Under the pieces are notes generated by a model, which saw only the letters and a program-made list of their open reading frames with translations, searched no databases and had not been told where the DNA came from. This document shows positions 16,234 to 59,253 of a stretch of DNA of 64,000 nt, piece after piece. The translations under genes and the position numbers were made by a program. The stretch comes from Yuukianura sp. NJ FZ-2021. Lineage: Eukaryota. Location: assembly GCA_046563655.1 (NCBI GenBank), contig CM102285.1:7936001-8000000 (forward strand). The letters are read 5' to 3'. The first letter of the stretch is position 1; each line of letters starts with the position of its first letter.

Positions 16234-19200
16234 TAAGAAAAAAAAGGAAAAAGGGACAACTAAAAAGAGGTGGAATTGAGAATCTAACTTTGGGGACATC
16301 TTGACCCACCTTGTCTTCAAGGGTCCAGTTTCATTCCGGATTCCCTTTGAGTAAGATCTTAAGTAACTACAGTGAAAGTGTTCTAAGCATAACACTGATG
16401 GTCCATCAGTCGACTCCTCCACAATTCTAGTTGTTGGCGTTAAAGCGTTAGCTTTCCGCGACATTATCTTCCAAGACAATTCAATTTCAAAAAAAATATA
16501 ATATTGGCAGTGGTTAACTTTCTCAAGTCCTCTGGAATTGTCAACTTTTCAAACACAACAAAAACTTCCAATTGTCTTCGCTCATAGTATCAACTTCGAC
16601 TCGCGCTCACAAAATCTATTATCGCCATTTCCGTCGCAGTATCAAGTTGCTGAAATGACACCATCTTTAAGTTATCAGCATCCTGTCAGCAACACCTAAC
16701 CTTAGCTAGGGGTTTTCTCTTATTTTTTTACTGCTTCAAGCTAATACAAGCACATGTTGCTGATATGAAGGTATGTATTAGTGCTCGCCAAAAAATATGT
16801 TAAATTCTAATTTTGAAACTGGATTTTTTATCATGTCTTAATTTTAAAAAATGTTTGTGTCAGTGTCAAAGGTCAAGCGAAACACAAGCTTGGAGTAGCT
16901 TTGCTTTAGCATTAATTATTCATTTCCGGAGTTCTGTGACCCCATTGCTTACAGGGCTAATTAGTCATTTCCTAATCAACACTTTTTTAACTTTCAACAA
17001 TATTTGCAAATTTTTTTTAGCGAAAAAAAGTTTTTTAACAAATTTGTTACTATGTATGCTCAAAAATGTGTCAATTAGTCTAATTAACAATTTCTGGTTC
17101 TCACCTGTTCAATTTGATACTCGTGTAATCATTCTCTGCAAAATTTAAAAACAGAAAACTTTCCCGCCAAATTTGAAAAAAAAAATTTTTTGTAAAGAAA
17201 CCACACCCGAAAAAACGTTTTAGAAAAATGACGTCCTTTCCCCCTTTTGTTTTTGGTTAAATGTTGGAGCAATGTTCTTTGTATACATATGGACAATAAT
17301 TCTCCTAATAAGTGGACGATAGCTGAATCCGAAAAGGTCAAAAATGTTACTGCATTGGTTTGGCATACCAGGTGTAGGAACCGGAATCTGCCGGTTGCGA
17401 TCTTTTCTGTTCATCCGAGTCACAACACCACAGATTTATATTGACATGTCCAAACCGTCCGCATCGTGAGCACACAGTAGTTCGTTCTCCAACGACGATG
17501 GTATCATGTGAAGTTGTGGTTTAATATTTGGCGAAAATTTAGCAACAAACGTGACACAGGAACACGAGCAACTGGTTCCATAGACAACGGCGTCAACCTT
17601 GGATCACATCAACGCGTTGATCTTCCTGGCTAGAATAAGATATTATCTCAACTATTATCATTTTAACAAGCAAAGTAACAGATATACTTACGGATATATT
17701 GGTAACTATACGTACGAACAAGAGGGCTGTTAATCCATGTACTTAGTGTAAACATGTACCTAGTGTAACTGAGATTGGACCCATAGAAAAAAAGCTGATT
17801 TCCCCGACTATGTATTTGGCAAGGTTAGTATACTATTGGCAGGGCTATGCTATGAGGGATGACATCCCCCCCGTGCATTCGTCCGCCCATTTTTTAGTAA
17901 ACAGCTAACAAAGACCGTTCAGCGTATCCAGCTTCCTTTGGATGCTGCGATGGAATCTACAGTACCAAACACTTTAAGTAGCTCATCACGGATTTCGGTA
18001 TTTTGTGGTGGGTTAGCCCTCATCTGTCCCAAATGATTCACCAGCCAATCTTCGGCTGCCTTTTCTAAGCTGGAAGGAATAAGCCCCATGTCGTCGGAGG
18101 TAGCCTATTCGCCATCGCTGCGAGCTCCCATTTGACTAAGAAGCGATGTACACACTCGGATTTCGTACCTCCGAATTTCGGAATCGGAAAAGGGACCGAG
18201 ACTCGCTGAGGTAATGGTGGAGTAGGAAAATTCACGACTTTCGATTTTGTTCCTGAGCTGAATCAAGTGAAGTGGTAAGATTTTCCAAAGAGGGTTTTGC
18301 CTGGGGCGCCTGCACGAGGGGGGGGGGGGGTAAGGGTGGGGGTGCTGGTATTATGGACGGCATTACAGGGAACTCTGGAAACGAGAAATTGGATCGGCCA
18401 TGGGAAGGGACAAGTTAGGGAACACAGGAAGCCAGCCTACTATGCACCTACTATGTGGACTAAGCTACATTCGGATATTTTTGTAGACAGCAAGCATATA
18501 AATGTCTATTTTTGATAGTGAAATATTTTCTCACCGTGAAACCGAATGGATTGTGTTTCCCAAGTAAAATCGGAGAAGGCTGTTTTCCCGCTGAAGTGTT
18601 GATAACGTGCGAAACACACTGATTTCCTACTGTCGTCCCGTAGAAATCAAAAGGTTCCGGAATTGTGGCTGTCGATGGTGGTATTGTTAGTGGTGTTACC
18701 GAGAGTGAGGACCAAAGTGATGTAGTTGCCTCAAATCTCAAAATCCAAGTCCGGGTCCCTTGCCCAGGGTGTGGTTTTTGTAACATTTTTCTCCTACTCA
18801 GTTTCGCAAAAGAAACGTAGGTCAGCACGCGCTCACCTCACATTTCCATGGCGTGATCCGACTATCGAGAAGTGCGTTGAGTTTGACGCAGCATGGATGC
18901 TGTAGATCTATACTGGACGATCCCTAGGTGTGGTTCAGTGAACTCTTAATACTTTCCCCGTCTTTGCCTTTTCACTACAAGAGGACATTCATCTCCCCGT
19001 CCTATACTAACTGTAGAACAGAATCTAGTTGCTAAAAAAAATCTTTGCCAAAGTCTGCATGTCAGATTTGAGTGGAGAAACAAACTTTTGAAGCTCTGCC
19101 TTTCCTGGCAAAGTACATGGGGGGAGACTCCATCCTATTGGTTAGTCTCCGCCCGTTCCGGTGCAGGTATATGCTCTTTTTAGTGAAAAGCTTGTGTGAA

Positions 19201-38980: not shown

Positions 38981-38997
38981 AATATTTCTTAACTAAA

Positions 38998-42035: not shown

Positions 42036-43124
42036 CTAACATCCCCCCAACTGTTTCACTTGAAGAAAAGTGTTAGTAGTTTCTTTTAACTGTGACACTA
42101 ACGTGTGAAATTCTGAGTCAACCAAAAACTGGGTAGAATTAGAGTAGGTTACTAAAGATTCTGGAGTCGTAGTTATTTTCACTAATTTCTGTTCCGTCAA
42201 CTGTGTGTCTACTTGATGCGGCAAAATGTAACGTCGGGAGTGAGGACAATAGATCATGGTGGGTGAAACAAAACACATAAAATCAGTATATGCTGTATAT
42301 TGACATAGGTGACCATTCGGAGGATCCAGTTCCTTCTGTAAAAGAAATCCATTTAACAGAGTACACACTGGTTGCCCAAAGTAACAGGAGTTGTCCGTTA
42401 GATACAAGTCCGTATTAACAATTTTTTGAGAAACAGGGTCCACATTGAGATTAAGTTTTTGCACATGATAGTCCACAAACATATTATCCTCACTGGGTAA
42501 AAAACGGGAGTTCAGATACGGATTTTTGTCTTGATAAGTAGTGCGGCGCTGGGGGTCTAACCATGTGGATGAAATGGCCCACTTAGAGTGAGGTACCGGT
42601 AAGTTAAAATATCCAAAAAATGTAGAAAACGGTGAAATTGGAGTTAGTAGGCGGCCGTGAGGATCCATTTTGTGTAATATCATCTGATAACAATCTTCCA
42701 GAGTGAAATTTTGATTAAGATAAACTCGACCATAATCATAATGAAACGTTGAGGATGCTCCTATCCGTGTCGAAGCATATTTGTGGATGGATGATCTGGT
42801 ACTTGTACATGCATAGGCCTCACGTGGGTTGCCATGAGTTCCTTTTAACTGAAACTCCACAGATACCAAAAGTGTTTCTTCCATTTTCACTACCTGAGGA
42901 TGACGATGTGGACTTAAGTACCCGATCACCCACCGATGAGAAGAAGGAAGTGGTCTCACAAACCTACTGTCACTATTCCACATAGCGCGGTCACCGTCAT
43001 TAGACACAGTCGCTTTGGTAAATGTATTGAGATTGGTAGGCACAGGAGGAGAAGGTCTCAAACTCATCGAGTGAGAGACTGTTGAAAATGAAAGTAGTAT
43101 TGCGAGAGTAATTTGCCACTCCAT
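42036..43124 (-). CDS. Env paralog 2: predicted secreted, anchorless, most divergent
   Basis: Signal peptide MEWQITLAILLSFSTVSHS. AYAC, TLEDCYQM, DPHG, VDYH, C.....VC and IYCP keep the Cys spacing of the other paralogs. Confidence 0.78.
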   Translation of the reverse strand: MEWQITLAILLSFSTVSHSMSLRPSPPVPTNLNTFTKATVSNDGDRAMWNSDSRFVRPLPSSHRWVIGYLSPHRHPQVVKMEETLLVSVEFQLKGTHGNPREAYACTSTRSSIHKYASTRIGASSTFHYDYGRVYLNQNFTLEDCYQMILHKMDPHGRLLTPISPFSTFFGYFNLPVPHSKWAISSTWLDPQRRTTYQDKNPYLNSRFLPSEDNMFVDYHVQKLNLNVDPVSQKIVNTDLYLTDNSCYFGQPVCTLLNGFLLQKELDPPNGHLCQYTAYTDFMCFVSPTMIYCPHSRRYILPHQVDTQLTEQKLVKITTTPESLVTYSNSTQFLVDSEFHTLVSQLKETTNTFLQVKQLGGC

Positions 43125-43204
43125 AGTCAGTAAAAGAGTACCAATTTTGAAAAGTCGTAACAAGATTTTGTTGTTTTTAGAGATTGTAACGTATCAAGAG
43201 GATG

Positions 43205-45733
43205 TTATGCTGGACGCGGGATGCCACTCCAAATGAAACCGTCCCCTTGAATGTACGGCTCGGTGAAGACTGAAGAGGGTGCCGTCGGTACCAATTGGTA
43301 TGAAGGGACACGAGTTTCCACAGAGGCCCTTAAAGGCATAACGGTGGGCGGAGCGTATCTCGGAAGGTTCGTAGAAGGTTGAAGTTCGGAAGTAAGTAAA
43401 GGAGGTTGCGAAGGTAACGTGCTCGGTCGTTCGATTAAAGGAAGCATTGTCATGTCATGTCTATTCATTGGCGGTTCAAGTAATGGCGCTTGCTGTGTGC
43501 GGTGAAATATGCGTGCCACACCCGGTAAGCGTTGGTATAAGGGCCGCCAAAATTTCAACAAAAGGACAAAGATGACCACTAGAACTGCTATTGTGAGGAG
43601 TCCAGCCAAAAATTTAAGGGTAAATTCTTTAATGGGGTCGATTGCCCAACCTCGAATAACATTCCGAACTTCCAACTGTTCCGCTGTCAACGGTTTTCCT
43701 TTAATTTTTGAACGAATTATATTGTCAATCGCTTTAGGTGCCTGAACTTGACGAAAGATGGCCATAACTGAATCAGAAGTTGTGATGTGTTTAAGAGCAA
43801 TTGACCCTGGACTATTAAAACTGATTTCAGCCATAGGTTGATTAGGGATTGAATTTTGGATTGGCAACGGAATAGTCGGCAAACGGACTTTAATGGTAGA
43901 AACATTGTTTAATAAAATACTCGTGTCATCGTCAATGTTGAAATAGAACGGTGGAACTTCATCACAAGGAGCCAATTCAGGTTCCAACACAATTTGATGG
44001 GACAACGCATTCATGTAGCCTTGCATCTTCTGGTGTTGGTACATGAAAACCACAGGCATATTTCGAGTACAATTGTCTCGTGATGGTTGAACAAAATGGT
44101 AAGAGTCAATTTGAGTACATGCTTTAAGTGATAATGCATCTCCGGATAAAGTAGCTAAATACCGATGATCACGTAACAACATTCTTGTGATGACATTCGG
44201 AATTTTATTTTCAGTAAGATAAGTACTGATATCCAAAAGTTGCCGTTGATTAAGGCATACTTGTTGCACCAAATTCTGAATCGCATAAGTGACATTCGCT
44301 CGAACCATATCATGCAAATACTGAAACTTTGCATTTGTCTCCGCGGCTGACATAAGTGTTGCTTGCGTTGGGAAAGTGCGTTGTCTACCTTGTGTAAGTT
44401 GACGAAAAACGTCTTCTTCGCGACCTTGGTAGAGTATCTGCGTATTTTGTTTTCGCTGGTCATTAACGTTAGATGACGAACCCGCAATGGATTCTTTCTC
44501 CCGAACGGAGAACGTTGGCCTCTCGGTGACAGAAGTTGAAAGAGGTTGGATTAAAATAGGTGTAGGCAGACGCATTGGTAAATGTGTTAAATTAGGATGA
44601 TTTGGCGGAGTGTCAATCGGAATTGGGTCATGACCTAAAGTCTGTTCCGCCTCCGTGACCCATGTTGGTGGTTGTTCCGTGGAAGTTTCAACCGAGGTCG
44701 TTATAGGAACCCGTTCTTTCGATACTTCCACAATCCCTTGGAAACCTGGCGCTTTAGGCCTGTTTTGTATTTGTTGTAACAAAGTCTCATCATCCGTTTC
44801 AATCAAATGACGCTTTTGTTTTCTCCCCCCGACACTCGATTTCAGACGGGTTAGAGCTTCGAACGTTGAGGTGGTATCCACGGAAAACGGAAAGATGTTT
44901 TCACGCTCTGGAGTAAACATCACCCCTTGAGTGCTAATCCCCATTTTGTATCCACACAAATCGATTTCATGTACCCCCGAAATACTATAGGATAATTCAG
45001 GACAGGATAGTTGAACATCATTGGTTAACAAGCATTGAGTCGTGGCAGAAGGTTGAAGACGACAAGTTTGAAATAAAGTATGTGTCCAAATCAAAACTGA
45101 TTCACCCGTACTAGGACAAGAATTATCCGTAGCTGGGCAGTTTGCCGTCAATGGAATAGGTGCCATTACCGTTTGATCCAAATTGTTTGCGGAAATCGTA
45201 ATTGCTGAATAATAGTAGTTGGTCACCTCTCTCTCAATTGTTTTAGGCCAAACATAATCTATTTCGACTTTTTCCGTAGTACCCCAAGTATTGTCCAGTA
45301 ATAACGTCATTTGTTTTTTATTTGGAGCCAATTGTTCCTCGACCATTCGCCTACACTCTTCTGCTGATACTTTTACTGGCGTTTCTTGAGACGATCTCGA
45401 ATGACTTCCCCAAAAGAAGAATGAGCGAACCTCCGAATTGCGAACAGCGCGACAATGAAATCCTTTTATAGCATCCATATTGGGGTTCTCAGCCCAAATG
45501 GTAAGGGTAACGACTTTGGTTTCCGTTCGTAATTCCTCTATTTCACAGGAAGGCATCGTTGGTAACCGATACAGTAACGCCCTGCTGGTTTCATCACAAT
45601 ACCAGAGGTGCGGCATTTTTGGTTTTAAGGATCCAAAATACAAACGATAGAGATTCAATTCCTCGAGAGTAGGTTGTGCCGTTGTCATCATGACCAAAAG
45701 AAAAGAGATGGCAAAGACAAATCCAGACGCCAT
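43205..45733 (-). CDS. env: Envelope glycoprotein, class III fusion protein-like (herpes gB/rhabdovirus G/chuvirus-like)
   Basis: Signal peptide, GFHC..FFFWG..VSAEEC segment, basic site RKQKR, long helix NAKFQYL...QVC, gB-like GDALSLKAC..C...PV motif, TM helix FLAGLLTIAVLVVIFVLLL and a Pro-rich tail. Confidence 0.85.
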   Translation of the reverse strand: MASGFVFAISFLLVMMTTAQPTLEELNLYRLYFGSLKPKMPHLWYCDETSRALLYRLPTMPSCEIEELRTETKVVTLTIWAENPNMDAIKGFHCRAVRNSEVRSFFFWGSHSRSSQETPVKVSAEECRRMVEEQLAPNKKQMTLLLDNTWGTTEKVEIDYVWPKTIEREVTNYYYSAITISANNLDQTVMAPIPLTANCPATDNSCPSTGESVLIWTHTLFQTCRLQPSATTQCLLTNDVQLSCPELSYSISGVHEIDLCGYKMGISTQGVMFTPERENIFPFSVDTTSTFEALTRLKSSVGGRKQKRHLIETDDETLLQQIQNRPKAPGFQGIVEVSKERVPITTSVETSTEQPPTWVTEAEQTLGHDPIPIDTPPNHPNLTHLPMRLPTPILIQPLSTSVTERPTFSVREKESIAGSSSNVNDQRKQNTQILYQGREEDVFRQLTQGRQRTFPTQATLMSAAETNAKFQYLHDMVRANVTYAIQNLVQQVCLNQRQLLDISTYLTENKIPNVITRMLLRDHRYLATLSGDALSLKACTQIDSYHFVQPSRDNCTRNMPVVFMYQHQKMQGYMNALSHQIVLEPELAPCDEVPPFYFNIDDDTSILLNNVSTIKVRLPTIPLPIQNSIPNQPMAEISFNSPGSIALKHITTSDSVMAIFRQVQAPKAIDNIIRSKIKGKPLTAEQLEVRNVIRGWAIDPIKEFTLKFLAGLLTIAVLVVIFVLLLKFWRPLYQRLPGVARIFHRTQQAPLLEPPMNRHDMTMLPLIERPSTLPSQPPLLTSELQPSTNLPRYAPPTVMPLRASVETRVPSYQLVPTAPSSVFTEPYIQGDGFIWSGIPRPA

Positions 45734-45845
45734 GGAGACAATAGGATTGAAGTAACTTCTAAAATAAGCATGCACTAAAGTAAGCAAGTGAAGACTAATA
45801 CCTCATCGAACCTTAGGTTCTGTAGCGACCGAAAAGGACGAAGAC

Positions 45846-48800
45846 TTATCCCCATTCATACTCATCCAGCCAGCGAGGGGGTTTGCGCGAGCGTGCTGAG
45901 CGTGTGGGGACTTCATTGGAAGGGATAGGGAAAGGACCGGCGTCATCAGCCTCAGCCTCCTCCCCCTCCCGAATGGGAGAATCCATCGTCGGAGTCTGGG
46001 GTTCGTGCCCCTGAGATTCCCGAGTGAAAGTTGGCAGATCTTTCTCTACTGCCAAACCATGTTTTTCAGCCCAAATGGAGAGTAACTCGCGATGTTGGCG
46101 TAGAAACTGGAAAACCCGTGGCTTATCCGTACTTCGCTGTATTACCGCCACCAGCACGCCAAAGATGGACACATATATTTTCGTATGTAGCGAGATGAGC
46201 AAAATCAAGAATATAAGAAATTCTTCCCAATGGTCTCCGAGAATCGCCAAGGAATGCGTGAGGAGTTGATTTTTAAAGAGCAGCATATTGTCCGTCAAAG
46301 ATTCGGACTCAACAAAATGGACCCATAAACCAGAAGGTTCAAGAATTTGAGCGTTACTTTGACATACTGGTGTCAGTTTGCCCGTAAAGCCTGGTGATTC
46401 ATCGATCAGAATAACATCAGTTAGGGAAAATTCCTGACAAGTGTGGAGGATTCGTTCAACGGAGCTGTCTTTACCGAGAATTATGGCTTTAATTACATAA
46501 ATTTGCAGCAAAGTATTAACGTTATTTAAAATCTGTGTGTTCCATGCCACTGTAGACTGCAAAAAATCCAAAATCAAATCATAATGATGAATCTCGTCAA
46601 GAAAAGTCTCCTCACTAACTAGTATATCCGCAAACTCGACATCAGGTGCACTCCGCTCATCAATCAATCGCATGCGCTTCGTTTGTGTAAGGAATTTACG
46701 ATTAGAAGTCAAACATTCAACCCGATACGTTGTGGGATTGATCTGTTCGAGGACTCTATATTCGCCATAATAATACGGAGTCCACTTTTTTGGAAACCCT
46801 TCAGTAGTCTTTCGAGGATACGTAAGTCTAACTTTAGAACCAATTTCATACGAGACCGTACTACTATACTTCTCCGCTTTGCGTTGCTGAAGAAGTTGTT
46901 GATGGGCAATCGCTTGTCGTACATCTCCCCATAGCTGCTGAATCGTCTTTTGTTTTTTAGACATCTCACTAGTGAGTACTTGAGTATGAAAAGTGTATGG
47001 TAACCGTGGCTGAAAGCCCATAAGAACCGAGAAAGGACATTGAAATTTCAAAAGTTTCAACGGAGCCGTATTAATACAAAACATGAGGGTAGGGATGTAT
47101 TGCACCCAATCTGTTCCATGATCATTAACAAAACTACGAATAATGGTGTGAAAAGTTGAATTGCTTCTTTCCGAAATCGCGTTGCCTGTTTTGGAATAAT
47201 AACAAACAAATCGAATCCTGGTACCAAAAAGTTTACTATGAGATTTAAGAAAAGTAGAGATGTAGCCTGGACCATTGTCACAGATTATAATTTTGGGTGA
47301 CGAAAACTTAAGAAAAACTTCCTTTTCCAGAAAATGAGCAATATCTTGTCCCGTCGTTGTTTTAAGCGGAACTATGATTTGGTACTTTGAGAGTAGACAC
47401 ACGGCGTTAATAATATATTTATAACCGTTACTTTCTTTAAATGGACCACATATATCGGTACTAATGATTTCCATTGGATGACTCGGAATTGGAAGTGACC
47501 CCATGGTGGCCGAAGCCTTTCCGTAATGGCGCTTCATACGGCCACATATTTCGCAATTCAAAACAAAAAGTGCTACGTCTTTCTTCATGGATGGCCACGC
47601 AAAGTGTCGAAACATTCGATAATAAGTTTTAGTAAAACCCATATGACCACTTAGTGGAGATTCATGTGCCTCTGCCAGTATAGTATTACGTAAGACCTTA
47701 GGAACAAAAATACGCGATATACCCATTTTCATGTCGTATAAAATATCGTTCTTAAGGATATATCGTGCTTTAAATTTAGGATCAGGCGTATTCAGACTTA
47801 GCCTTATTCGAATAGCTTCTTCGTCTGCCATCTGAAGCTGTTTCCAATCCAAATCGTCCTCCTGTCTACGCCACCCATCCTCTCGTTTATCATAATTTTT
47901 ATCAAAGAGAATTGTCATGATGGAAGACGAATTATACTGCTGTAATTCAACATCGTCATGAAACTCTTGATGTAAAGGGGTCCTGCTCAAATAATCCGGC
48001 AATTCCATAGTTTCACCTGTTTTGTATTTGATGACAAAATTAAAGTCTAATAAATAAGTAGCCCAAAGAATGATCTGCCTACTAACACGTTTGCATGGAG
48101 CGAGAAATTCTTTAATTTGGGAAATTGGTTCATTGTCTGTGAATACTGTGAACTTTATGCCGAGAAGATAAATGTGGAAGACTTTACACGCTATAGTAAT
48201 AGCAAGCAGTTCCCTCATGTACGCCGGCATGTTTCTTTGTGCTTTGGTTAGAGTACCTGAGTGGTAGGCACATGGCACTTCGACATCTTTGTCCACTAAT
48301 TGCATCAAACAACAACCAATCCCGTACGCACTAGCATCCGTATATACTCTCGTTTCCCGAGAGGATTGGAACCAGTGTAATAGCGGTGGAGATGTTAGCA
48401 AACTGCGTAACTGATCAATAATAGCAAAATGTTGGTTTTCCAAGACAAATTTTTGATCTTTTTCTAATAATTTGTATAGTGGTTGGCAAATAATAGACAA
48501 ATCGGGAATACTACGGCGAAACCAGTTAACTGCCCCTAGAAAGCGCATTAATTCTTTAGGTGAAACAGGGTAAGGAATATTCCTGACGGCTTCTAATTTT
48601 GTCGGATCTTGTTGAATACCCTCTCTACTAATGTACATCCCTAAAAGCTTAATTTGTGTGTAGCCAAAGTGACTCTTATGGACTGAAAGCTTAACTCCAT
48701 ATTCACGTAGTCGAATAAACGTCTTACGTAAATGTTCCAGATGGTCCGCGAATGAATTAGAGCCAAAACACAAATCATCCAAGTAAATTGCGACAGATTC

Positions 48801-50396
48801 GTACAGGATAGAACCAAGACATAAATGCAAAGATCTCACAAAACTCGCGGGCGCATCGCGAAGGCCAAACGGTAAAATTTTATATTGAAAATTTCCAAAA
48901 TATGTCGTAAATGCTGTATACTTCCGAGAATCTGGATGTAAAGGGACATTATGATATCCTTTACTGATGTCCGCGACACTCAGAAATTGATGTCTTGTTC
49001 TTAGCCATTCCAAAATTGTCTCTACCCCAATTAAAGAGAATTCAACAGGTTCACATTGCGCATTTATGTCCCCATAATCAACACACATCCTATAAGTTTT
49101 CGTTCCATCACCTGTTGTTATACCGTTTTTAACCATGACGGTGCGAGATAGAAAATTGGAGTTGCTTGGTTCAATCTTATCTAGTTTTAATAACTCCTGG
49201 ATGGTTGCATTTTCAGCATCCATAGCTTCTTTATTCCGCCGAACCGGTTGATGGCGAAACGGTTTAGCATTTGGCTTTAAAACGATGTGATGAACATAAT
49301 CTTTGATAACACCGATCTCACCCTTATAAGAAAAAACATCATTATACTGTCGTAATAGTAAACGCAATTGATCTTGCTGTTCAGGATCCAACTCGGGATT
49401 AATACGAGCATACAATGAGTGTAAGTGATTCTCGTAGTCACCCTGAGTGAGTCCCTTAAAATTGTATTCCTCCCATGGTTCGCGAAAAGTAACTTTCTTT
49501 GAACCATTTCCTGCAACACCGTGTGGTTCCTTGTCCGTCGGCTGAGTATCTGCCAATCGTGGAGAATTTGGAACAGTAGGAGAAGAATCTACATCGTTAT
49601 GACCAAGCTTCGTCTCCTGATCCAACATCGGAAAAACTGACTTGTAAGAAATGTGATCTGCATCGGATTGACCAGACACGATCGCCTGTCCCTCCTGCTT
49701 GTAAGAAGTGTGACCTGCGTCTGCGTGACCAGGCACTATCGCCTGTACACGAGCGGAAAACTTCTCTGGTAAACACGTACTATTCATCTCAACTCTGGTT
49801 CCCTCATCATCTGTAGTATTTTGTGACTTATCATTAAATATGGTGGAACTAAGGTGCTGAGTCCTTTCATGCATGGAAACAGCATCTTTTTCCTGGTCCC
49901 CGGCCGAGGAAACTATATCTAAAACTGTAGTGTCTACTGAATAAATTCTCTGGTTTGCAGAATGGTTCAACTCGGGAAACTCTATCCCTCCGACATCATC
50001 CGTAGGAACCACAGGGAAAGTTGTATTACCAATAGTGACAGCCTGAGTGGCTAGATCAATTTTGACTTTATGTTTACGTAAGAAATCCATACCCAAAAGT
50101 ACCCGGGGAGGACAATTATCCACCACTAACAACTCATGATCTGCCTGAAAACCTGGAAGATGAATAGAGACTTGGATTTTACCCGCCGGAACTATTTTAG
50201 TTGCACCGATTCCCGTGAGTGTAACACTATGGCTGAGTTTGTTAAGTCTCGTAGTGTCCACTAAAGAAGAATCGATTAAGGATGCCTGAGCACCCGTATC
50301 TAATAAGATGAGCGTTGAGTAATTATTAATTGTCCCATTAATTTTGAGTAATTCAGTACCTGTAATATGAAAAACACACTGTTGTTGAGAGTTCAT
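45846..50396 (-). CDS. pol: Pol polyprotein (PR-RT-RH-IN plus C-terminal extension), 1516 aa
   Basis: Motifs LLDTGA, RMCVDY, LPFGL, YLDD, YTDAS, HHCC (HESPLSGH...CEIC), STDICGP, CDNG and SERSN. The frame is uninterrupted and overlaps the gag stop (ATGA). Confidence 0.97.
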   Translation of the reverse strand: MNSQQQCVFHITGTELLKINGTINNYSTLILLDTGAQASLIDSSLVDTTRLNKLSHSVTLTGIGATKIVPAGKIQVSIHLPGFQADHELLVVDNCPPRVLLGMDFLRKHKVKIDLATQAVTIGNTTFPVVPTDDVGGIEFPELNHSANQRIYSVDTTVLDIVSSAGDQEKDAVSMHERTQHLSSTIFNDKSQNTTDDEGTRVEMNSTCLPEKFSARVQAIVPGHADAGHTSYKQEGQAIVSGQSDADHISYKSVFPMLDQETKLGHNDVDSSPTVPNSPRLADTQPTDKEPHGVAGNGSKKVTFREPWEEYNFKGLTQGDYENHLHSLYARINPELDPEQQDQLRLLLRQYNDVFSYKGEIGVIKDYVHHIVLKPNAKPFRHQPVRRNKEAMDAENATIQELLKLDKIEPSNSNFLSRTVMVKNGITTGDGTKTYRMCVDYGDINAQCEPVEFSLIGVETILEWLRTRHQFLSVADISKGYHNVPLHPDSRKYTAFTTYFGNFQYKILPFGLRDAPASFVRSLHLCLGSILYESVAIYLDDLCFGSNSFADHLEHLRKTFIRLREYGVKLSVHKSHFGYTQIKLLGMYISREGIQQDPTKLEAVRNIPYPVSPKELMRFLGAVNWFRRSIPDLSIICQPLYKLLEKDQKFVLENQHFAIIDQLRSLLTSPPLLHWFQSSRETRVYTDASAYGIGCCLMQLVDKDVEVPCAYHSGTLTKAQRNMPAYMRELLAITIACKVFHIYLLGIKFTVFTDNEPISQIKEFLAPCKRVSRQIILWATYLLDFNFVIKYKTGETMELPDYLSRTPLHQEFHDDVELQQYNSSSIMTILFDKNYDKREDGWRRQEDDLDWKQLQMADEEAIRIRLSLNTPDPKFKARYILKNDILYDMKMGISRIFVPKVLRNTILAEAHESPLSGHMGFTKTYYRMFRHFAWPSMKKDVALFVLNCEICGRMKRHYGKASATMGSLPIPSHPMEIISTDICGPFKESNGYKYIINAVCLLSKYQIIVPLKTTTGQDIAHFLEKEVFLKFSSPKIIICDNGPGYISTFLKSHSKLFGTRIRFVCYYSKTGNAISERSNSTFHTIIRSFVNDHGTDWVQYIPTLMFCINTAPLKLLKFQCPFSVLMGFQPRLPYTFHTQVLTSEMSKKQKTIQQLWGDVRQAIAHQQLLQQRKAEKYSSTVSYEIGSKVRLTYPRKTTEGFPKKWTPYYYGEYRVLEQINPTTYRVECLTSNRKFLTQTKRMRLIDERSAPDVEFADILVSEETFLDEIHHYDLILDFLQSTVAWNTQILNNVNTLLQIYVIKAIILGKDSSVERILHTCQEFSLTDVILIDESPGFTGKLTPVCQSNAQILEPSGLWVHFVESESLTDNMLLFKNQLLTHSLAILGDHWEEFLIFLILLISLHTKIYVSIFGVLVAVIQRSTDKPRVFQFLRQHRELLSIWAEKHGLAVEKDLPTFTRESQGHEPQTPTMDSPIREGEEAEADDAGPFPIPSNEVPTRSARSRKPPRWLDEYEWG

Positions 50397-51658
50397 GGAT
50401 GTGCCCTGTTGAGTGAGTTGATCAAGGGGTTCACTGGATTCCCCGGACGGCCCCCTTCCGTCGCCTCGGGTTGTGCGTTTTTTAAATACTTACAGTTTTC
50501 TGTACTGTGTGTAGTACTATTATGATGTGTGCAAAATTGCTGTTTTTTGCGTGGACGTTGAGCTGCTGTAGGCTGCATACGACAAGCTTCCGTAGAATGG
50601 GTATCGGTGCGATGCGTTGTGCAATAAGTGTCCTCTAAACAATTTGAAGCTAGGTGACCCGGTCTAGCACAACGGAAACAGGTCAAAGTGCTACATTTAG
50701 ATGCAATATGCCCCGGCTGTCCACAGCGATAGCATCGCATGGGACCTTGACCCCTACGTTGCGTTCCACCAGCCTGAGAGTTCTGTGTGAACATCTGAGA
50801 ACCCTGATACAAGTTTGGGTCTCGAACTAGTGAAGTATCCTGTATGAATTGCTGCAAATTAGGATATAACGCTGGAGGTTGTGTCGCTGCCGCGTTGACA
50901 AAAGTAACTGTGTCGGTATTACTCGCCCTAGTCACATTTGCCATTGCTTGTTCCAAAGCAAACACATCTCTCTGATGTGTCAACATGGATGTAGCCTCCT
51001 GTATCGTCTTACCAATTGTAATAAACTGGTCTATTGTTTGCGGATTGAGCAGTGCCATCTGCTGTAAGTACGAAGGCCGCAGATTCCGAATCAAGTATTT
51101 CAACTTACGAGATTCGCTAAGTGTCGGATCCAGTTGTTGTAAAATGTTCAATAAGTCGTACGTATACGACTCAATTGACTCATCCACCCGTTGCTTACGG
51201 TTTTGCGCTTTATCCTCCGTAGCAATTGAATCCACAGCTCCAAAGATTTTAAGGAAAGCTGCTCGTAATTGGTCAAAACCTACTACCGCCGTTTGTTGCG
51301 GACTTTGGAGCCGTAATTGCTCCAGGTAATTGATGAACCAATCTTCCGCAACCTTTTCCAAGGAAGCGGGTAAAAATAAACCCCAATTCGCTTTGGGTAA
51401 ACGGTTCGCCATTGCCGCGATCTCCCATTTGACAAGGAATCGATAGGCACATTCGTCTTTTCCTCCCGCAAATTTAGGAAAAGGCACGGTGACCCTTTGT
51501 GACGCTGCCAAGCCTCGCGGCTGTAAGGCTCCTTGAACTCTTGCCGCTGAGGCAGTCATAGCCGGAGCTGGGATAAGTGTGGGAAGAGGAGGTGCAGGTG
51601 GAGGTGTAGCTGGATTTAAGTTAACTATATCCTCTAAGTCATCCAAATCATTCATCAT
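50393..51658 (-). CDS. gag: Gag, 421 aa, with two CCHC knuckles and two C-x2-H-x4-H-x4-C motifs
   Basis: Motifs FPKFAG, L...A..WF, RKQRVDESI, CYRCGQPGHIASKC, CFRCARPGHLASNC, CTTHRTDTHSTEAC and CTHHNSTTHSTENC. Confidence 0.95.
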   Translation of the reverse strand: MMNDLDDLEDIVNLNPATPPPAPPLPTLIPAPAMTASAARVQGALQPRGLAASQRVTVPFPKFAGGKDECAYRFLVKWEIAAMANRLPKANWGLFLPASLEKVAEDWFINYLEQLRLQSPQQTAVVGFDQLRAAFLKIFGAVDSIATEDKAQNRKQRVDESIESYTYDLLNILQQLDPTLSESRKLKYLIRNLRPSYLQQMALLNPQTIDQFITIGKTIQEATSMLTHQRDVFALEQAMANVTRASNTDTVTFVNAAATQPPALYPNLQQFIQDTSLVRDPNLYQGSQMFTQNSQAGGTQRRGQGPMRCYRCGQPGHIASKCSTLTCFRCARPGHLASNCLEDTYCTTHRTDTHSTEACRMQPTAAQRPRKKQQFCTHHNSTTHSTENCKYLKNAQPEATEGGRPGNPVNPLINSLNRAHP

Positions 51659-53346
51659 GTTCTGTATGTGTAATTTGTACCCTCAATCACCAAATGAACG
51701 AGGTATTATTAAAGAAAAATATTGGTGTTTGTTCAATAAAAGTGAAAAATGATTACTCACGTTTGATGTTAAAAGAAATCCAATTAACAATGATTCAAGC
51801 CGCCGCCGTAGTCGTGGTGCGTCCACAAAAGATAGTTCAATAAGGAGAGTTATTGTCTTAAACAATCAACGAATGTCGTAGGTAGTAAAAATGAAAAGAC
51901 TTGTAATTGTTCTTTAACTTTAGTACAATGGATAAAGTAAAAATGTCTGATCCAACTCCGTCCACTGTCAGACGCGTACTCCCCCGGATGCCTTCTACTA
52001 CTTCCCTTAATATTCCTTTGTACTGTGTATGCAAAAAGGGAACACGCACGAGGCAAGGCCAAAAAGCGTAACGCAATGGCGTCTAAAGGCAATGACCGAT
52101 GAACTACTCCACGTGCCAACTTGTGTGGAAAATGAAAGTGTATTGAGTCCAATTTGGTTGTTTGTGTGTTGCTGCTCCATTTCCAATGGTATAGGAGTGA
52201 ACTCCGCCCTTACTGGGAAGGATGTTGTAACCACACCCATACCGGTGAACATATTCAACTAACTCCTCCCATACCGTTGGAGCTGGTTAAGACTAGTGTT
52301 GTTTTAGTATGTTTAAAAATAAACCTCGTCCAGGCCCAAGATGTCGAAAAATCATCCACACCCAAAGAGATGAAAAGTCATCCACACCATATATGGCAAC
52401 CATGGAGCGGATGGTTTACATGGTGTGATGTATCCATGATCCTCAACGTAATCTCCACACTATTGTCTTTCGCTTATACTATTCCAAATGCATCTACCCC
52501 TTGGACTACCAACGCATATGCGTAATGTAGTGCAGGGACAGTACGCACTTTTCGCCCGGCGGATCAGTCTCCATCGTCCTAAAGGGGTGCAGTTGCAGCT
52601 GATACTTTCTCTCTTAACACCAATTTATAGTAAAAATAAGTGCAAAAAGAAACTAAATACTAATCGTGATATATGCTTGTGTCAGTTTTAATTGAAGACT
52701 CTCGTTTGCCAAAACCCGTACATCATAGTAGATGGTATCCAGGGATAATCACAGTGAAAGTGAACGGACATTCTAGTGATGTAATCTGCCCTATGCCATG
52801 CTGTAAAGGAAGTGTCCTTTATGTAAGTACAACAAACTGAGTTTGTCGCATTAAAGCATGAATTAAAAGCAATGTGATTCGTACTTTTAAACTACTATTC
52901 GCAGTAGATGTGTTAGATAAGCGTGAAACTACGTACTCAAAATTGTTTATTAAAAAAATAGCAACGCTGTGCCCCTCAGACCAAAGCATGAAGATACCGT
53001 GTGTTAGACGAAAATCTGTACTTCATCAGTGTAATCAATTGACTCATTACTAAACCATGAGGGTATTTCTAGGCTCATTTCGCTTTGAATAACGTACCGA
53101 GATTAAGAACTGGAAAGGTTTACAAAAAATCGTTTTATTCGTGTTTTGCAAATATGATATTACTGATCGAAAAAAAATGATTTAAAACGGTATCCTTTCC
53201 TTCTATCACACCGTATAAAAAATGCTAATTTATAATTTGATTTTGTTTTCTTTATTTGATAGTTCTCACGTCAACACCTAACCGCATTTTTTCACTATTG
53301 ATTGTAAAACGTTCAAATCCTATCGAAGGTGGAAGAAGATAGCAAC

Positions 53347-56122
53347 ATGGAAAACTCTGCTAATGGTAACGAAAGTGAACATGAACTCGAAAATACTGTA
53401 TTAACAACCCCACGCGACTTGTTTATGGGACATTGCAGTTTCCTCCCCAATGCATCTAACAATACTAACGGTAATTCAATCAATGAAATGGAGGCTAACT
53501 CGAATGGAGACGGTTTTACCGATTTAATTATAGTTTTGTCCCCTGTTCCTCATTATGAAGATCTAACCCCAGATCCTGAACCGTTACAATCACCAACTGC
53601 TTACGAAATGGCCACGGAGTGTGAAATGCCTATGATCCCAACGAATCCAACTTTGGCTGACGTTCAAGACCCCGCTGTCCACTCTCCGCCTACCGAAACT
53701 GCCGATGTTGTACCCGCTGGAGACGCTGGAGTGAGAATCATGAACCCTACGCCATCTACCTCCCGATTAATCGTGGATAGTTTAAAATCAAAAAACCAAA
53801 ACCGTAGCACTCCCAAACCCTCTCCAAAACGCAAACGAGCCAACAAACGAGCTTCTGGAATCCGGTCTCCTCACTGTGTCGTATCGGACCCCGATGACGT
53901 ACTCCCCTCGTCAAGCGTATCCACTCGGGATCCGACTCCTCGTAGTTGCAAAACGACCAACCGACGTTACTACCATATTTATACCAGTTCGGAAGATGAT
54001 CCTGAAAGTGAGCCCGAAGTCCTCTCCTCGCCAAGATCGTCCCGTGCCGGGTCTCCGAATCCTTCCCTGGATGATTTTCCCTCTACTCCAAATGCTGGTT
54101 ATCAGACCGCCTTGTCTTATTTACAGCTGACTATTGCGAATGTTCTGAAAATGTGGCATCATGACCAATACAAAGCCAAACGAGGCAAAACTCGATGGGA
54201 ATTCACAGACGACGTCCGAAATTGTCGAGCCGAGGGGTTAACTGTGGAGCTCGGGCACACTTTCTTCAAGGGTCTGAAAGAGACGTTTAAACCTAGAACC
54301 TGGAAAGTTGTTGTATGTAATGAACACTTTTTATGAACAAGAATGGTAAGAATCTAATGTCCCTAACCGATGTCAACCCTTAGTTACAGGATCCCCAAGT
54401 GGTGTCCTTCTTTAAAGCCAGCTTAGAGTCTCTGGATGAGAAAAGTTACTTTTTGAATATGCTCTGCCATTGGATAATTGAGCTGTTCCCTGGAACCACA
54501 GCGAGACGCAATCGAACCGACATTATTGATTGTTTTAATGTAAGTTGTTAACGAGTAGTGATTAGAACATGCCGTCTAACATTCTTTGTGTTATTTGTGT
54601 ATTCCAGTGGATCCTTAGGTATGACCTCGTGACCCAAGTCGAGCTGGCGGAATGGTGTTTTCGTGCTATTTCGCAAAATTTACAATTAGGAACCGGCCGT
54701 AACCGTTTTCATGATGCCGAATTTGATTACATCTTTGTGCTAGGACCAATCTATCCTATGTTGACTCGAATTGTGACTACCGAGGTAAAAGCAAATATCC
54801 TTATGTTGAGCATATTCAATTGATAAATCTCCAACTTGCAGGGAATGACGGATCCGCTCGCGCAATTTGTGGATCTTCAAATTACCAGTTGTAAGCAGGG
54901 AATGGCCGCAGGTAATGCCGTTATGTCCCCCGCCACTGAGAGCCTGATTGAGTATGCGGAAGATCCCCGTGTGAAGCAAATCGTAAGTTCAATACCCTTC
55001 CCTCACACGTGCTCCCCTAATAGAGACAACCATTTCTGTGTTCTATTTTTAGTTGCTTTCTGGGCGAGGTTTGTTTGACATAAAATGCGAAATTCTAAAT
55101 CCCAATTCGTCTTGTCGTTTCTTTTTTGTCACTGGGTATTTTATGATTTTTTATATTATTTGATTTGCTTTTTTCACCATGTTTTTATCGTTACTGACTG
55201 CGATTCATAATCATAGGGGCTGGATCTTAAAGTGTAAAGACATGGACCACACCGACGCCATCGCTAAGTTTGAGAAATCCCTTGAGGAAGGTGGTGAGGG
55301 GTATATTCGGACGCGGTGGACTGACGGTCAAGGGAACCCGGATACTCTAAGACTGCCCAAATGTGAAACAAGTAAGATCAGACTGTTATTCGAAAAACCA
55401 AAGTCGTGTTCAAAATGCTAACCTCTCAAACTATGTAATTTAAGGATTTTTCCCCCAAGATCTACTAACTTCCCCGACAATCGAGACAGGGCGTTACTAT
55501 TGTGGAATATGCCAGGCCGAGCTGCATGATCAGAAGATACTAGATCCAAAACTAATCAAAACCCTTGTAAAATACACGAGTGAGGAATTCCTAGCCCATG
55601 TTCATGCGCACAACCCTATTGACCGCATCGATCAACGTTGCGGCTGTTACCGCTCCCTTTGGGTGTCTGCGAGAGATGTCCATGCTCGGAGTTGTTCGTC
55701 TTGCGTATGTTATCAACACGGTTTTAGTGTAAGTGACTATCTTCTACTATGAACCTACACCCTTCAAAACTAACGAAAATCTGCCTTATGAATTATAGGT
55801 TCGTTCCAAGGCTTTCCATTTGACTTCCGAGCGAGAACGAAAACAAAAACATGCCGGCTGTAACTTTTGCAACCTCTGTGGGCGTAACATGAAGAGTATT
55901 GAAGAGTTAGAAAATCATACGTTACACAAATGTAAAGCTTGTCGCCATTGCGAGTTATCTTTTTCTTCTATTGGTGAAAGTCGTGAGGATCATAAGACCA
56001 AATGTTTCCGCTGCTATTGTGGTAATGTATATGAGACCCCAGATGCTTGTCGTTTGTGTATCGTAACTTGTTTAAAACGAAACATTTACCTTACTCCCGA
56101 TGATGTAAATCGAAAACGTTGA
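53347..56122 (+). CDS. Antisense 8-exon accessory gene of element B (~761 aa; disordered N-terminus with basic NLS-like patch, Cys/His-rich C-terminus)
   Basis: Exons 53347-54312, 54384-54539, 54608-54784, 54842-54982, 55053-55135, 55217-55371, 55445-55728 and 55799-56122 join via GT-AG introns into a 2286-nt open frame. A homolog lies at 19954-26366. Confidence 0.85.
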
Positions 56123-56192
56123 GTTTGTAAATAAATTTTGTCGTGTGTGTACTTACGTGTTGTCTTCGTTCCAACTTTACCATCAAAAAGGG

Positions 56193-56212
56193 ATCCGGTT
56201 CGAATAGGACCA
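56193..56212 (-). promoter_or_regulatory. Primer-binding site of element B, tRNA-Tyr-like
   Basis: TGGTCCTATTCGAACCGGAT lies 4 nt inside the LTR and resembles the complement of the tRNA-Tyr 3' end (TGGTCCTTCGAGCCGGAT). Confidence 0.8.
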
Positions 56213-56216
56213 GATA

Positions 56217-56492
56217 TGTGGGGACTTTCTCCTCGTGACCTCCACATGTCAACATGGCTCAAGAGAGACATCCTCTTTCTGCATCCCGGACGGCCTGGAA
56301 CACTACACCTCAATCTGACCTCGGCATCTCCACCTCTAATAACGTCTCTCGCTCTCTCTCTCCCAAATAGGCAACACACTCTTTATTCACACTCTCAATA
56401 CCCTGAGCTCTAGAAGGAACCTCAGCTGCACGTAAGCCTGTTCCTCGGGTAGAGATCCTCTCACGAGGACCTCTACTCGAGTACTCTCCCTC
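56217..56492 (-). repeat. 5' LTR of element B, lacking its outer ~71 bp
   Basis: Matches 38998-39273, then switches abruptly to host exon sequence at 56493. Confidence 0.93.
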
Positions 56493-57399
56493 GATGCTTG
56501 ATGTTCCTGGAATATGAATTTCTTTTTTGCCAACTGAAAACGAAGACGAAGGATGGACTTCCAGGTCCCATGGTCCTGGAAGTGGTCCACCGGACGGGCC
56601 GTCCATTTTCTGCGTTGTGTATGGCTCAAACTCCCAAACTGTTTCTCTTTTCTCTGTGCTAGAGGTCAAGTTGTACTGGAAATAAGAGAATTACTAGTTT
56701 ACAGAATGTTCAGCAATTCGATTCTAATGCTTTTTTTAAAATTAGGTTAGCGGTAACCTTGAACCCGCTTTTCATTTTGATGTCTTCGAAAGTTATGCCT
56801 TCAAGTTTGCCACGGCAGAATTTCTTGTCAGCGTATTTCTCCAAGGCAGTTCTGATTTCATCTTCAGTTGCTGCCGCAGCGGCTGGCAGCAGAGGACGAC
56901 TTTCATCGGTTTGAAAATCACCTTGGTCCTTACCATCCATGAAATAAGGATTCGTCGGAGGCTGGATTGCTAAAAACAAATTGAACATTTTAGTTCTAAT
57001 TTTCGAATTTTAGAACTCATGCGTTTTTCTTGCGTTTTTACTTGGAGCCAAGGATGAATCAATGTAACCCGGTAGGCTGGAACCATGGAAGTTAAAGCCT
57101 ATGTCGCCAGCTCCTCCCTGAGTCGGAACTGGTGGCGCGCTGCTTGCATTTGCTGTCCACTGCTGCTGTTGACCTATAGGTGCAAATCCATCTTGCGGCG
57201 GATAGGCGTTTTGTTGTCCCTGCGGTTGCCACATTCCAGCGGAACCCTGGTTGAAATTCGGTTGACCCGTGGGATACTGGACGGAATTTGGACCAGGCGG
57301 CGGATATGGGGAGTTGCCTTGTGGTGGATATGGAGTCTGGCCATAATTCGGATTTTGATTAGGCGGGTACGGCGCGGCATTTTGACCGGACGGATACAT
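56493..57399 (-). pseudogene. SSUH2-like gene, 5' half, truncated mid-exon by element B
   Basis: Pro/Gln-rich N-terminus, TEDEIRTAL, and EKRETVWEFEPY...DGP..GPLPGPWDLEV...F...IPGTSSI typical of SSUH2 homologs. Introns are GT-AG. Confidence 0.8.
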
Positions 57400-59253
57400 T
57401 TCTTCCTGGACCAAGCGTTCCTCTTCCTTCGTAGGCAAAAGAGCCCTTAAAAGTGGTGAATTATGATATAGAATTTCACAATTGAATTTATAGCATTTCG
57501 GTGACTTAAAAAAACTACACAAACTGTTGGTAAAAGTACTAGGTGAAAGCAGAGTAGTCGACAGTAGTATACGATTAATTTGTAATTTGCTAAACTAATC
57601 ATAAGTAAGACTCATATTTGCTTCGTTGCGATAACTTACTTACGAGTTCTAAAAGAGTAGATTTACTGGAGTACCAAACCGTATTATTGTTGACCAAGCG
57701 CACTCCCGGAAGATCGCTGTTAAACGTTAACCTACTTTGAAATACTTTGGGAGTGGCTGGAAATCGTAAATGGCGGATGGAGTGGAATACACTCGTCACT
57801 GGTAAGAGTCCTTAAAGTTTATAAATAGATTCTGGTGATCTGAACAAATTTACACGCAGCAACAGCAGACAGACAGAGCATTTTCGTGCACTACTCAACC
57901 ACTTCTGGAAACCCAAAATTTGCAGAATGCTTTGTTCTCCAATTTTTTAGTTACTTGAGTGAAAAAAAACATAATTGCATAAACGCCAAGGCCATCGTCT
58001 TCGTCACGCAATTTGACATCCACCATACGCCCAAAACTGCTGGCTCGCACCATTATATCATCATTTGGATCTGACAAAGACCGCACTTCTGCCTGGAATT
58101 ATTACTAAGTACATCCTTTGTATAAGTTTGGACTGTACGTACAAAATAGTGAGAGACTCGCGCATTTATTCGGAGAGTTTTGTTTATTTTCGGAAGTGGA
58201 ACAGGGGAAGCATACGTGATGGGACGGTTAGATTCTGTTCAGCTTTAGCATCCTAAAAGTAGTTACGTGGTTCGCTTTAGGACTTTCACCACTTTCCACT
58301 TTCAAAATTTCCAACTTGAACCTATAAGTTCAAGTTGGAAATATAGTTGAAAATATAGTTTTTTTTTATAGTATGTCTGACATAATGTCAGGCGTTAAAC
58401 GAGTTAACTAGAAGCGTCAGAGTAGAATGCTTTCACTTATATTTTCCTAAAGCCGTTCACTGAGAAAGGCAAAAGAGAAAGTGCCGAGGTGAATGTCAAA
58501 AGGCTTCTAATGTACCCAATTAGAATTAATTTATCTTAATTATATATTAAATATATTATATGCATTAAATATATACATTAAATATATAGGTTATATAACA
58601 GTTATTATAAGGTGAAAGTTAAGGACCGGCAAGGCTATAATTAAAACGATTGTTCTGATAAAATCAATCAAAGCAATCGAAAAAAAATTGTCATTTTGGA
58701 ATAAATATACTAATAAGGAATAGATTTTCTGAAATTTTTTCCTACAAGGTCAACGGTGCAACTGTAAGCCATATTTGAAAAAAATGATGCTGAGTGAGTT
58801 TTAATTTTTGTTAGATGTGAATTTGAAACTTTCTACATAAGTATAAACGTCATTTGAAGAAGAAGTTAGACTTGGAGTGAATGTGACTTGTTTTATTTAA
58901 TTTTAAGTAATGAAACATAAACTTAGGTTAATATGTATTTACCTAATGTATTTAGTAAAGTGATGAAGAACTAAAGTCTAAATGCATAAACTACTAAAAA
59001 AAAGATGAGATCATGAATTACACCTAAAATTAGTTCAACCAACAATTGTTTGCTGGTTTTATAATATTATATTGCTTGTTTTAGGAAAAGAGAGCTTCTG
59101 ATCGAATGTTTCTTTGTACTTGCATTTCTTCTACGTTTATGAGTACCAGGAATGTTTCGTTTTGACAAGGGTTTTGAACATAATTAGCCAACTACACCAC
59201 AAAGTAACGGAAGGTTCTAATGAGGTTGTCACAATTTGAACACTGACTTTTTT

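Follow-up and report, generated by a model that had tools for sequence, protein, structure and literature searches.

We report an intron-rich gene carried in antisense orientation in the leader of a retrotransposon, found in a 64,000-nt stretch of the genome of Yuukianura sp. NJ FZ-2021 (contig CM102285.1 of assembly GCA_046563655.1, forward-strand positions 7,936,001 to 8,000,000). This whole stretch is referred to below as the window, and all positions are counted from its first letter. The carrier, called element A, is 17.5 kb long, and its pair of long terminal repeats (LTRs) encloses gag, pol and env on the minus strand together with the antisense gene on the plus strand. The gene is split into eight exons and lies between gag and the primer-binding block that adjoins the 5′ LTR, on the strand opposite gag, pol and env. 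A diverged and disabled second copy, copy C, stands beside an LTR of its own elsewhere in the window. The observation of the antisense gene is real and statistically solid, and the reading that it is borne by the element is well supported, from two copies. We regard it as probably a selected, separately expressed accessory gene of an env-carrying Ty3/gypsy-type LTR element.

The antisense gene (plus strand, 53347-56122) has a coding sequence of 2280 nt, corresponding to 759 codons plus a TGA, without any internal stop. Exon 1 (53347-54312) contributes 322 codons, the last ~85 amino acids of which are conserved with copy C, and exon 2 (54390-54539, 50 codons) ends in DIIDCFN followed by the donor gtaagt, as it does in copy C. 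Exon 3 (54608-54784) adds 59 codons. The following three exons each have the same length in copy C: exon 4 (54842-54982) with 47 codons in 141 nt, exon 5 (55053-55135) with 83 nt and a phase 2 end at VTG, and exon 6 (55217-55371) with 155 nt and a phase 1 end at ETR. Exon 7 (55445-55728, 284 nt) holds CxxC...H...H and CxC...H...C motifs, while exon 8 (55799-56122) encodes 107 codons, including 12 Cys, and the TGA. All seven introns read GT...AG and measure 77, 68, 57, 70, 81, 73 and 70 nt; each of them would bring in a stop codon if retained, and by eye a CTRAY-type motif precedes the AG by 20-35 nt in six of the seven. A first-pass annotation of this DNA had described eight exons, seven short GT-AG introns and a stop-free frame of about 761 codons opposite gag-pol. 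The splice model with its retained-intron stops bears out this structure and the open frame, the count being corrected to 759 codons plus the stop.

Intron 6 has two in-frame acceptors 45 nt apart, with a CTAAC-type motif ~20 nt upstream of each (TGCTAAC and TACTAAC). The acceptor at 55489, which would give a 744-amino-acid model, was dropped, as the intervening 15 codons are conserved coding sequence in copy C. The boundary at 55444/55445 is the likelier one because copy C keeps those 45 nt as coding sequence. Judging by the two acceptor sites, alternative splicing of intron 6 may yield two isoforms differing by 15 amino acids.

A tblastn search of the 64-kb window with the spliced product returned one other copy only, with 31-61% amino-acid identity per block. 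Its intron positions and phases match those of the gene in element A in all seven cases, including the DIIDCFN|gtaagt junction, phase 2 at VTG and phase 1 at ETR, so that the matching exon boundaries named in the annotation are confirmed throughout. Five of the seven comparable exons (3, 4, 5, 6 and 8) are of equal length in A and C, and all seven introns are of unequal length. DNA identity between A and C amounts to 0.55-0.67 over the exons, with 0.49 for exon 1, against 0.49-0.54 for shuffled sequences; only exon 1 (0.49 vs 0.49 shuffled) and exon 3 (0.55 vs 0.54) stay at the shuffled values. The introns reach 0.46-0.60, with shuffled values of 0.45-0.56.

Selection was assessed mainly on the four equal-length exons that could be aligned without gaps, comprising 232 codons with an amino-acid identity of 0.56. 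As a dN/dS-type check between the copies, as the annotation had suggested, we compared the proportions of nonsynonymous (pN) and synonymous (pS) differences. pS was 0.725, which is near saturation, and pN was 0.287, giving a pN/pS of 0.40 in the coding frame. This contrast was lost in the two shifted frames, which gave 1.39 and 0.98 and contained 13-27 stops. Identity at codon positions 1, 2 and 3 of the same 232 codons was 0.70, 0.71 and 0.46, and over all 703 aligned codons pS and pN came to 0.79 and 0.38, respectively. In exon 8, all 12 Cys and four of the six His are invariant between the two copies. A pN/pS contrast at near-saturated pS means that the frame was protein-coding for most of the long time separating A and C, and a coding frame kept for so long is hard to square with a frame arising by chance, with a function at the RNA level alone or with a merely transient passenger. 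The sequence comparison thus shows that purifying selection has acted on the protein encoded by the antisense gene.

Copy C lies on the minus strand at 19954-26366, with its ATG at 26366 and its stop ending at 19954, and follows the same eight-exon plan in disabled form. Exon 1 contains an in-frame stop and a frame change, exon 3 a stop and frame changes, the donor of intron 3 is lost, and exon 7 has suffered both a frame change and the insertion of a transposon. The latter is a Transib-like DNA transposon of 3363 nt (minus strand, 20492-23854) with a 5-bp duplication and inverted ends beginning CACATTGG..., and it is separate from the gene. Its open reading frames (ORFs) encode 445 amino acids without a Pfam match and 129 amino acids with a weak RAG1 match (E 0.0098). 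Next to the gene, on the plus strand and thus inverted relative to element A, are an LTR (19482-19864) and a primer-binding-like block (19866-19890). This LTR is diverged and can be aligned in part to the LTRs of A at 76-87%, and the primer-binding-like blocks of A and C agree in 24 of 25 nt. The distance from the gene's stop to the block is 68 nt in A (56122 to 56191) and ~65 nt in C, where an AATAAA overlaps the stop codon. No gag or pol was found on the expected side of copy C, which is a dead fragment made up of the LTR, the primer-binding block and the gene only. What had been annotated as a divergent element C therefore does hold the same gene beside its own LTR and primer-binding site, in a disabled state, and does not amount to a whole element.

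Two further observations concern the surroundings of copy C. An isolated gag fragment on the minus strand (18208..17946), 50-74% identical to the gag of A, is located 1.3 kb from the LTR of C in an orientation that is wrong for belonging to copy C as it stands; it may be the remnant of a third copy or a sign of an inversion. In the outer part of the LTRs (39230-39345 in A and 19490-19640 in C), hairpin-forming repeats of the types GAGATCCTC...GAGGACCTC and GTGAGG...CCTCAC occur. These hairpin-forming motifs are kept between A and C, and the middle of the LTR is not alignable.

The carrier of the intact gene is defined by a direct repeat at 38997-39273 and 56216-56492, in which 276 of 277 aligned positions are identical (one difference). 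The left-hand LTR (minus strand, 38997-39348) is ~351 nt long with TGTG...CACA ends. The right-hand one (minus strand, 56216-56492) is missing ~76 nt at the outer (U3) end that both the left-hand LTR and the LTR of copy C possess, the full length of ~351 nt being taken from an alignment of both A LTRs with that of copy C. A primer-binding-site-like block (minus strand, 56191-56215) starts with TGG a few nucleotides inside the edge of the right-hand LTR, and a purine run (...AACAGGGGG on the minus strand, ~39349-39358) abuts the left-hand LTR. Hence the minus strand is the sense strand of element A, and the right-hand and left-hand LTRs are its 5′ and 3′ LTRs. As to the primer, the sole transfer RNA (tRNA) gene in the window, a tRNA-Ala (CGC) at 34914-34987, mismatches the primer-binding-like block at its 3′ end.

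Between the LTRs, gag (minus strand, 50393-51682, ATG near 51659) encodes a Ty3 capsid-like protein with two CCHC knuckles; Pfam reports zf-CCHC at E 3.7e-11 and Ty3_capsid at 23.6 bits, under its cut-off of 29.1. The pol gene (minus strand, 45846-50489) encodes protease, reverse transcriptase, RNase H and integrase in Ty3/gypsy order, with Pfam matches to gag-asp_proteas/RVP at residues 50-144, RVT_1 at 463-619, RT_RNaseH at 710-816, Integrase_H2C2 at 929-987 and rve at 1003-1096. The env gene (minus strand, 43205-45802) encodes a class III fusion glycoprotein of 865 amino acids that matches PF24664 Monjiviricetes_fusion at 48.9 bits (cut-off 27) and, weakly, the herpes glycoprotein B (gB) family Glycoprotein_B at 22.5 bits (under the cut-off of 43). 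With its LTR pair, the order of its pol domains, the zinc knuckle of its gag and its fusogen-like env, the carrier is an env-carrying element of the Ty3/gypsy (Metaviridae) type. The positions of the LTR pair, the ORFs and the Pfam matches also corroborate the earlier placement of the gene between primer-binding site and gag, within an LTR element and antisense to gag-pol.

Downstream of env, three ORFs of 385, 442 and 367 amino acids (minus strand, 39619-43193) have hydrophobic, signal-peptide-like starts. The 442- and 367-amino-acid ORFs resemble each other weakly, and the latter also resembles env residues ~75-310 (~22% identity, E 1e-7 to 5e-7). No such similarity to env or to its neighbours was found for the 385-amino-acid ORF, and none of the three has a Pfam match. 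They may represent a tandem family of secreted glycoprotein paralogues within one element. The C-terminal part of pol (residues ~1260-1547; minus strand, 45846-46700) extends for ~290 amino acids past the integrase and an SH3-like region without matching any family. Element A abuts a host-exon-like open frame (minus strand, 56493-57600, and 38900-38996) with a P/Q/Y-rich N-terminal exon upstream. A host gene has seemingly been interrupted by the insertion of element A, coupled with the loss of ~76 nt from the 5′ LTR. The introns of the neighbouring host sequence are ~70-80 nt by eye, as short as those of the antisense gene.

Signals that could drive a separate transcript flank the antisense gene within the element. 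A TATA-like box (TATAAAAAA, plus strand, 53214-53222) in the spacer between gag and the antisense gene (51683-53346) contains a TATAAA 133 nt ahead of the ATG, the sole one within 650 nt upstream of that codon, and we infer this box to be a candidate core promoter. At the other end, an AATAAA (plus strand, 56130-56135) is a candidate poly(A) signal, separated by 8 nt from the stop and by 55 nt from the primer-binding block; it is the only one on the plus strand within 53201-56216. Placed in this way, the two signals predict a transcription unit that is wholly internal and ends before the LTR. The leader as a whole, from primer-binding block to gag, measures 4529 nt and holds 62 ATGs on the sense strand, and no ATG-started sense-strand ORF longer than 81 amino acids was found anywhere in these 4529 nt.

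Splice sites are strand-specific, and the introns of an antisense gene accordingly stay in the genomic RNA. Retrotransposition reporter cassettes use the same antisense-intron logic in mirror image. Owing to this directionality, antisense introns are kept through reverse transcription, which is the established principle on which the annotation had relied. We propose that, after integration, a promoter within the element, at the TATA-like box (53214) of the spacer beside gag, would drive transcription in the direction of the 5′ LTR, with its end at the AATAAA (56130) a short way ahead of the primer-binding site. The antisense mRNA would be spliced seven times. In the genomic (sense) RNA the same introns would read CT...AC, go unrecognised by the spliceosome, be copied intact by reverse transcription and be inherited by each new insertion. 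The product would be trans-acting and probably nuclear, with the transcription, chromatin state or silencing of the element itself as its target, and only copies descended from elements with a working gene would keep spreading, which would explain the selection on the gene.

In the product as predicted, a disordered N-terminal half is followed by a middle domain that is conserved and by Cys/His modules, four or five in number, that resemble zinc fingers. In residues 1 to ~240, a low-complexity region enriched in S, P and T, two motifs recur in copy C, one a basic stretch of the KRKR type and the other acidic and Ser-rich; we take the KRKR-type stretch in this N-terminal half to resemble a nuclear import signal. 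The conserved middle region (residues ~240-560) is split over exons 1-6. The last 199 amino acids contain 19 Cys and 12 His, so that the C-terminus is indeed packed with CxxC/H motifs as annotated. Exon 7 provides a CxxC...HxxxH unit and a CxC...H...C unit. Exon 8 shows two C-x2-C-x12-13-H-x3-4-C units and a Cys4 cluster, a spacing that presumably belongs to the C2HC class and resembles C2HC/C2H2 fingers in tandem.

Homology searches beyond the window were carried out with single exons and hardly covered the middle domain (end of exon 1 to exon 6). With exon 8, a sequence search of the PDB gave C2H2 fingers at E 0.012-0.09 (best 0.012), and the Atlas feature score to C2H2 clusters was 0.93, which is a lead only; exon 7 reached 0.85 at best, under the lead level. 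An exon 8 profile built from A and C and compared with 1.84 billion representatives had a sole match at E 1.5e-4, to a repetitive, many-fingered zinc-finger protein, and as such this match was rejected as a homologue of the antisense gene. The zinc-finger likeness of the C-terminus suggested by these searches is thus weak and at lead level only. Exon 1 as a whole, exon 8 and residues 236-322 of exon 1, each compared with longer proteins only, found no match. The exon 8 profile produced 108 pattern matches in metagenome contigs and 182 in viral contigs, none of which was confirmed, and a scan of metagenome contigs with pol produced 26 pattern matches, likewise with none confirmed.

From its predicted features, the product might bind nucleic acid or chromatin in the nucleus and tune how the element is transcribed or silenced, a tentative suggestion that we would sooner doubt than assert. 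The full reading is that a seven-intron antisense gene in the 5′ leader has been kept since before the split of A and C in an env-carrying Ty3/gypsy lineage, that it would have more introns than any other gene known to pass through the RNA genome of an LTR element, and that it encodes an orphan zinc-finger-like nuclear factor needed for expression control or escape from silencing. We consider this combination a serious possibility, falling a little short of an even balance.

Other explanations of the arrangement have to be weighed against an element-borne, selected gene. The intron-rich structure, the short introns resembling those of the neighbouring host sequence and the gene's own promoter-like and poly(A)-like signals could all come from a cellular gene that entered the element as DNA, in reverse orientation, and is of no service to it, and gene capture by LTR elements is known (PMC7264820). 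Such a passenger is nevertheless unlikely, as it should decay, whereas the gene is common to two lineages with near-saturated pS and a pN of 0.29, and its place beside the primer-binding block is unchanged in A and C. Captured genes, according to the same source, are moreover typically present in one or a few copies (PMC7264820). That no cellular homologue was found also speaks against a passenger, although this is a weak point, the organism's genome having been outside the searches. The truncated 5′ LTR of A, the lack of a demonstrable target-site duplication and the reduction of C to LTR, block and gene, with the nearby gag fragment (18208..17946) wrongly oriented for C, would instead fit a local rearrangement or assembly join that placed a host gene between the LTR and primer-binding fragment of one element and the gag-pol-env and LTR of another. 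We think this clearly improbable: the LTRs of A differ at 1 of 277 positions, as expected of a single young insertion, and the same order and spacing of LTR, primer-binding block and gene recur in C, which is 55-67% identical in most exons. The recurrence of this order in so diverged a copy calls for co-mobilisation rather than two coincidences.

Barely credible is the case that the annotation itself had named as its refutation, namely a gene belonging to an independent DNA transposon with its own termini that inserted into both elements. The window is transposon-rich, and a Transib-like transposon did enter copy C. However, no terminal inverted repeats, direct repeats or duplications were found bracketing the gene in A, where the longest inverted pair of the leader, of 28 nt at 75%, is within the gene itself; no transposase-like Pfam match was obtained, and two insertions at the same spot and in the same orientation in diverged elements are unlikely. 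Antisense transcription might also serve only to yield double-stranded or small RNAs that damp the element, the reading frame being incidental. Antisense non-coding retroelement transcripts are known and such a role has been proposed for them (PMC7264820; PMC10186651), and the transcript would overlap the sense leader. An RNA-only unit is still very improbable in view of the codon-position pattern of 0.70/0.71/0.46, a pN/pS of 0.40 in the coding frame alone, the invariant cysteines and the conserved intron phases and exon lengths; an RNA role alongside the protein is compatible with all of these.

Several points weigh against the reading of a selected, element-borne accessory gene. Conservation in the family is based on two copies, one of which is dead and without adjacent gag or pol. 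Copy A is itself imperfect, its 5′ LTR missing ~76 nt, and no target-site duplication was found around the element, the two flanks being different; the duplication is unreadable because the 5′ LTR is without its outer ~76 nt and abuts host-exon-like sequence. This absence is a defect of copy A that leaves the family assignment intact, and element A is young, yet flawed. Promoter, splicing and polyadenylation of the antisense gene are all predicted. A Pfam scan at E <= 0.01, run piece by piece on exons 1-4, 7 (from the first full codon of the first model) and 8, found no family in any of the six exon translations. At E <= 10, four conserved pieces, exon 6 included, gave only weak noise in exon 8 (EPF, DUF6686 and zf-C2H2_4 at E 0.51). 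The fold predicted for exon 8 from a two-row alignment had a predicted local distance difference test score (pLDDT) of 43.6 and is unusable. With no significant domain and no usable fold for exon 8, the functional guess is almost without direct support. The earlier description of a vertically inherited, element-encoded nuclear regulator or anti-silencing factor accordingly holds for its element-encoded part, through the LTR pair and the same place in C, and is unsupported for the regulatory role, hinted at only by the KRKR-type stretch and the zinc-finger-like spacing.

No homologue of the antisense gene was found by any route of the single-exon searches, a null that says little about a cellular origin or cellular paralogues. 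Genes borne on repeats are often left out of protein sets; taken together with the use of single exons, this makes the null a statement that nothing was found and no proof of uniqueness. The proposed model also carries a cost that it does not explain, as the antisense mRNA overlaps 2.9 kb of the leader and should form double-stranded RNA with the genomic RNA, thereby inviting RNA silencing. It leaves equally unexplained that a 4.5-kb leader with 62 ATGs is a poor template for the translation of gag. The sense strand has a GTAAGT at 56156, 35 nt past the primer-binding block, and an ...ACAG immediately ahead of the gag ATG. As a speculation, a sense-strand intron from 56156 to this pre-gag ...ACAG would relieve both the double-stranded-RNA and the gag-translation problem; by eye, the GTAAGT donor (56156) is not conserved in copy C.

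Antisense genes of other retroelements provide the natural comparison. Those of deltaretroviruses (HBZ of human T-cell leukaemia virus type 1 (HTLV-1) and APH-2/3/4) are expressed from spliced antisense mRNA and act as nuclear regulators of viral transcription. HBZ-type genes start in the 3′ LTR and are located at the 3′ end, their mRNA occurs in both spliced and unspliced form, and HBZ itself belongs to the bZIP proteins (all as given in PMC10186651). Like this class, the present gene is encoded opposite gag-pol-env. Unlike it, the gene sits in the 5′ leader, with 14 kb separating it from the 3′ LTR, faces the 5′ LTR and needs an internal promoter, contains seven introns and gave no bZIP or other Pfam match in exon-wise scans. 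The analogy to HBZ drawn in the first-pass annotation is thus apt as a conceptual antisense likeness and breaks down over gene position, promoter source and bZIP.

The antisense ORFs of plant Ty3/gypsy elements (Grande gene23, RIRE2, Retand) are family-wide and have their own promoter, and the Grande product is nuclear, with a suspected, unproven regulatory role. In the Tat/Retand/Grande group such ORFs are common between pol and the 3′ LTR; many of them have a TRP28 (PF04195) or PMD domain, and no function is known for them (PMC7264820, PMC11963269 and PMC4408406). The word 'intron' occurs 0 times in the main text of two reviews of these ORFs (PMC11963269; PMC7264820). The gene described here differs in lying between the primer-binding block and gag, in its seven introns and in its carrier with a gB-like env, and no TRP28 (PF04195) or PMD domain was matched in the exon-wise Pfam scans. 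Ogre, like other intron-bearing LTR elements, replicates with an intron (cited in PMC4408406). The Ogre intron is located on the sense strand between gag-protease and pol and is spliced from the element's own RNA. An intron is carried through replication in both cases, whereas the introns here are antisense and in a separate gene.

For env-carrying metazoan Ty3/gypsy elements with a gB-type env ('errantivirus' broadly), the main text of a survey describes gag-pol-env only and uses the word 'antisense' 0 times (PMC13524379). Element A shares with these the LTRs, a CCHC gag, a pol with protease, reverse transcriptase, RNase H and integrase, and a class III fusogen env, and departs from the surveyed elements by adding three glycoprotein-like ORFs and the antisense gene, to 17.5 kb in total. 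A paper on extra ORFs in rotifers mentions antisense for small RNAs only and describes no such gene (PMC5408684), and in a review of giant transposons the word 'antisense' is absent and no such gene is described (PMC6431247). The full-text literature, with subscription-only papers and supplements outside the search, yielded no LTR element described as carrying an antisense gene with many introns between its primer-binding site and gag. Measured against these systems, the gene appears to act like an antisense retroviral accessory gene, yet it fails the class features of HBZ and of the plant ORFs in position, promoter source and domain.

The window contains further retroelement sequence apart from A and C. 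A compact, separate Ty3/gypsy element (7742-12787) encodes gag, protease, reverse transcriptase, RNase H and integrase on the minus strand without an extra gene, and its 214-nt LTR pair is 100% identical (rounded figure). Further pol fragments occur at 2-7400. Two small ORFs on the minus strand, of 155 (13947-14414) and 154 amino acids (14942-15406), look paralogous and have no Pfam match; their N-termini are similar (MH..D/T..SL..I...L..ED.LN).

For annotation, the case is a warning that a spliced gene in a repeat-masked retroelement is easily missed or mistaken for a host gene. In the persistence of deltaretroviruses, antisense accessory genes play a central part, and the antisense ORFs of plant LTR elements are without an assigned role. 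If the reading proposed here is true, a complete split gene of the host type can pass stably through reverse transcription as part of an LTR element and be maintained by selection acting on the element, and the leader, usually taken as non-coding, can hold a regulator.

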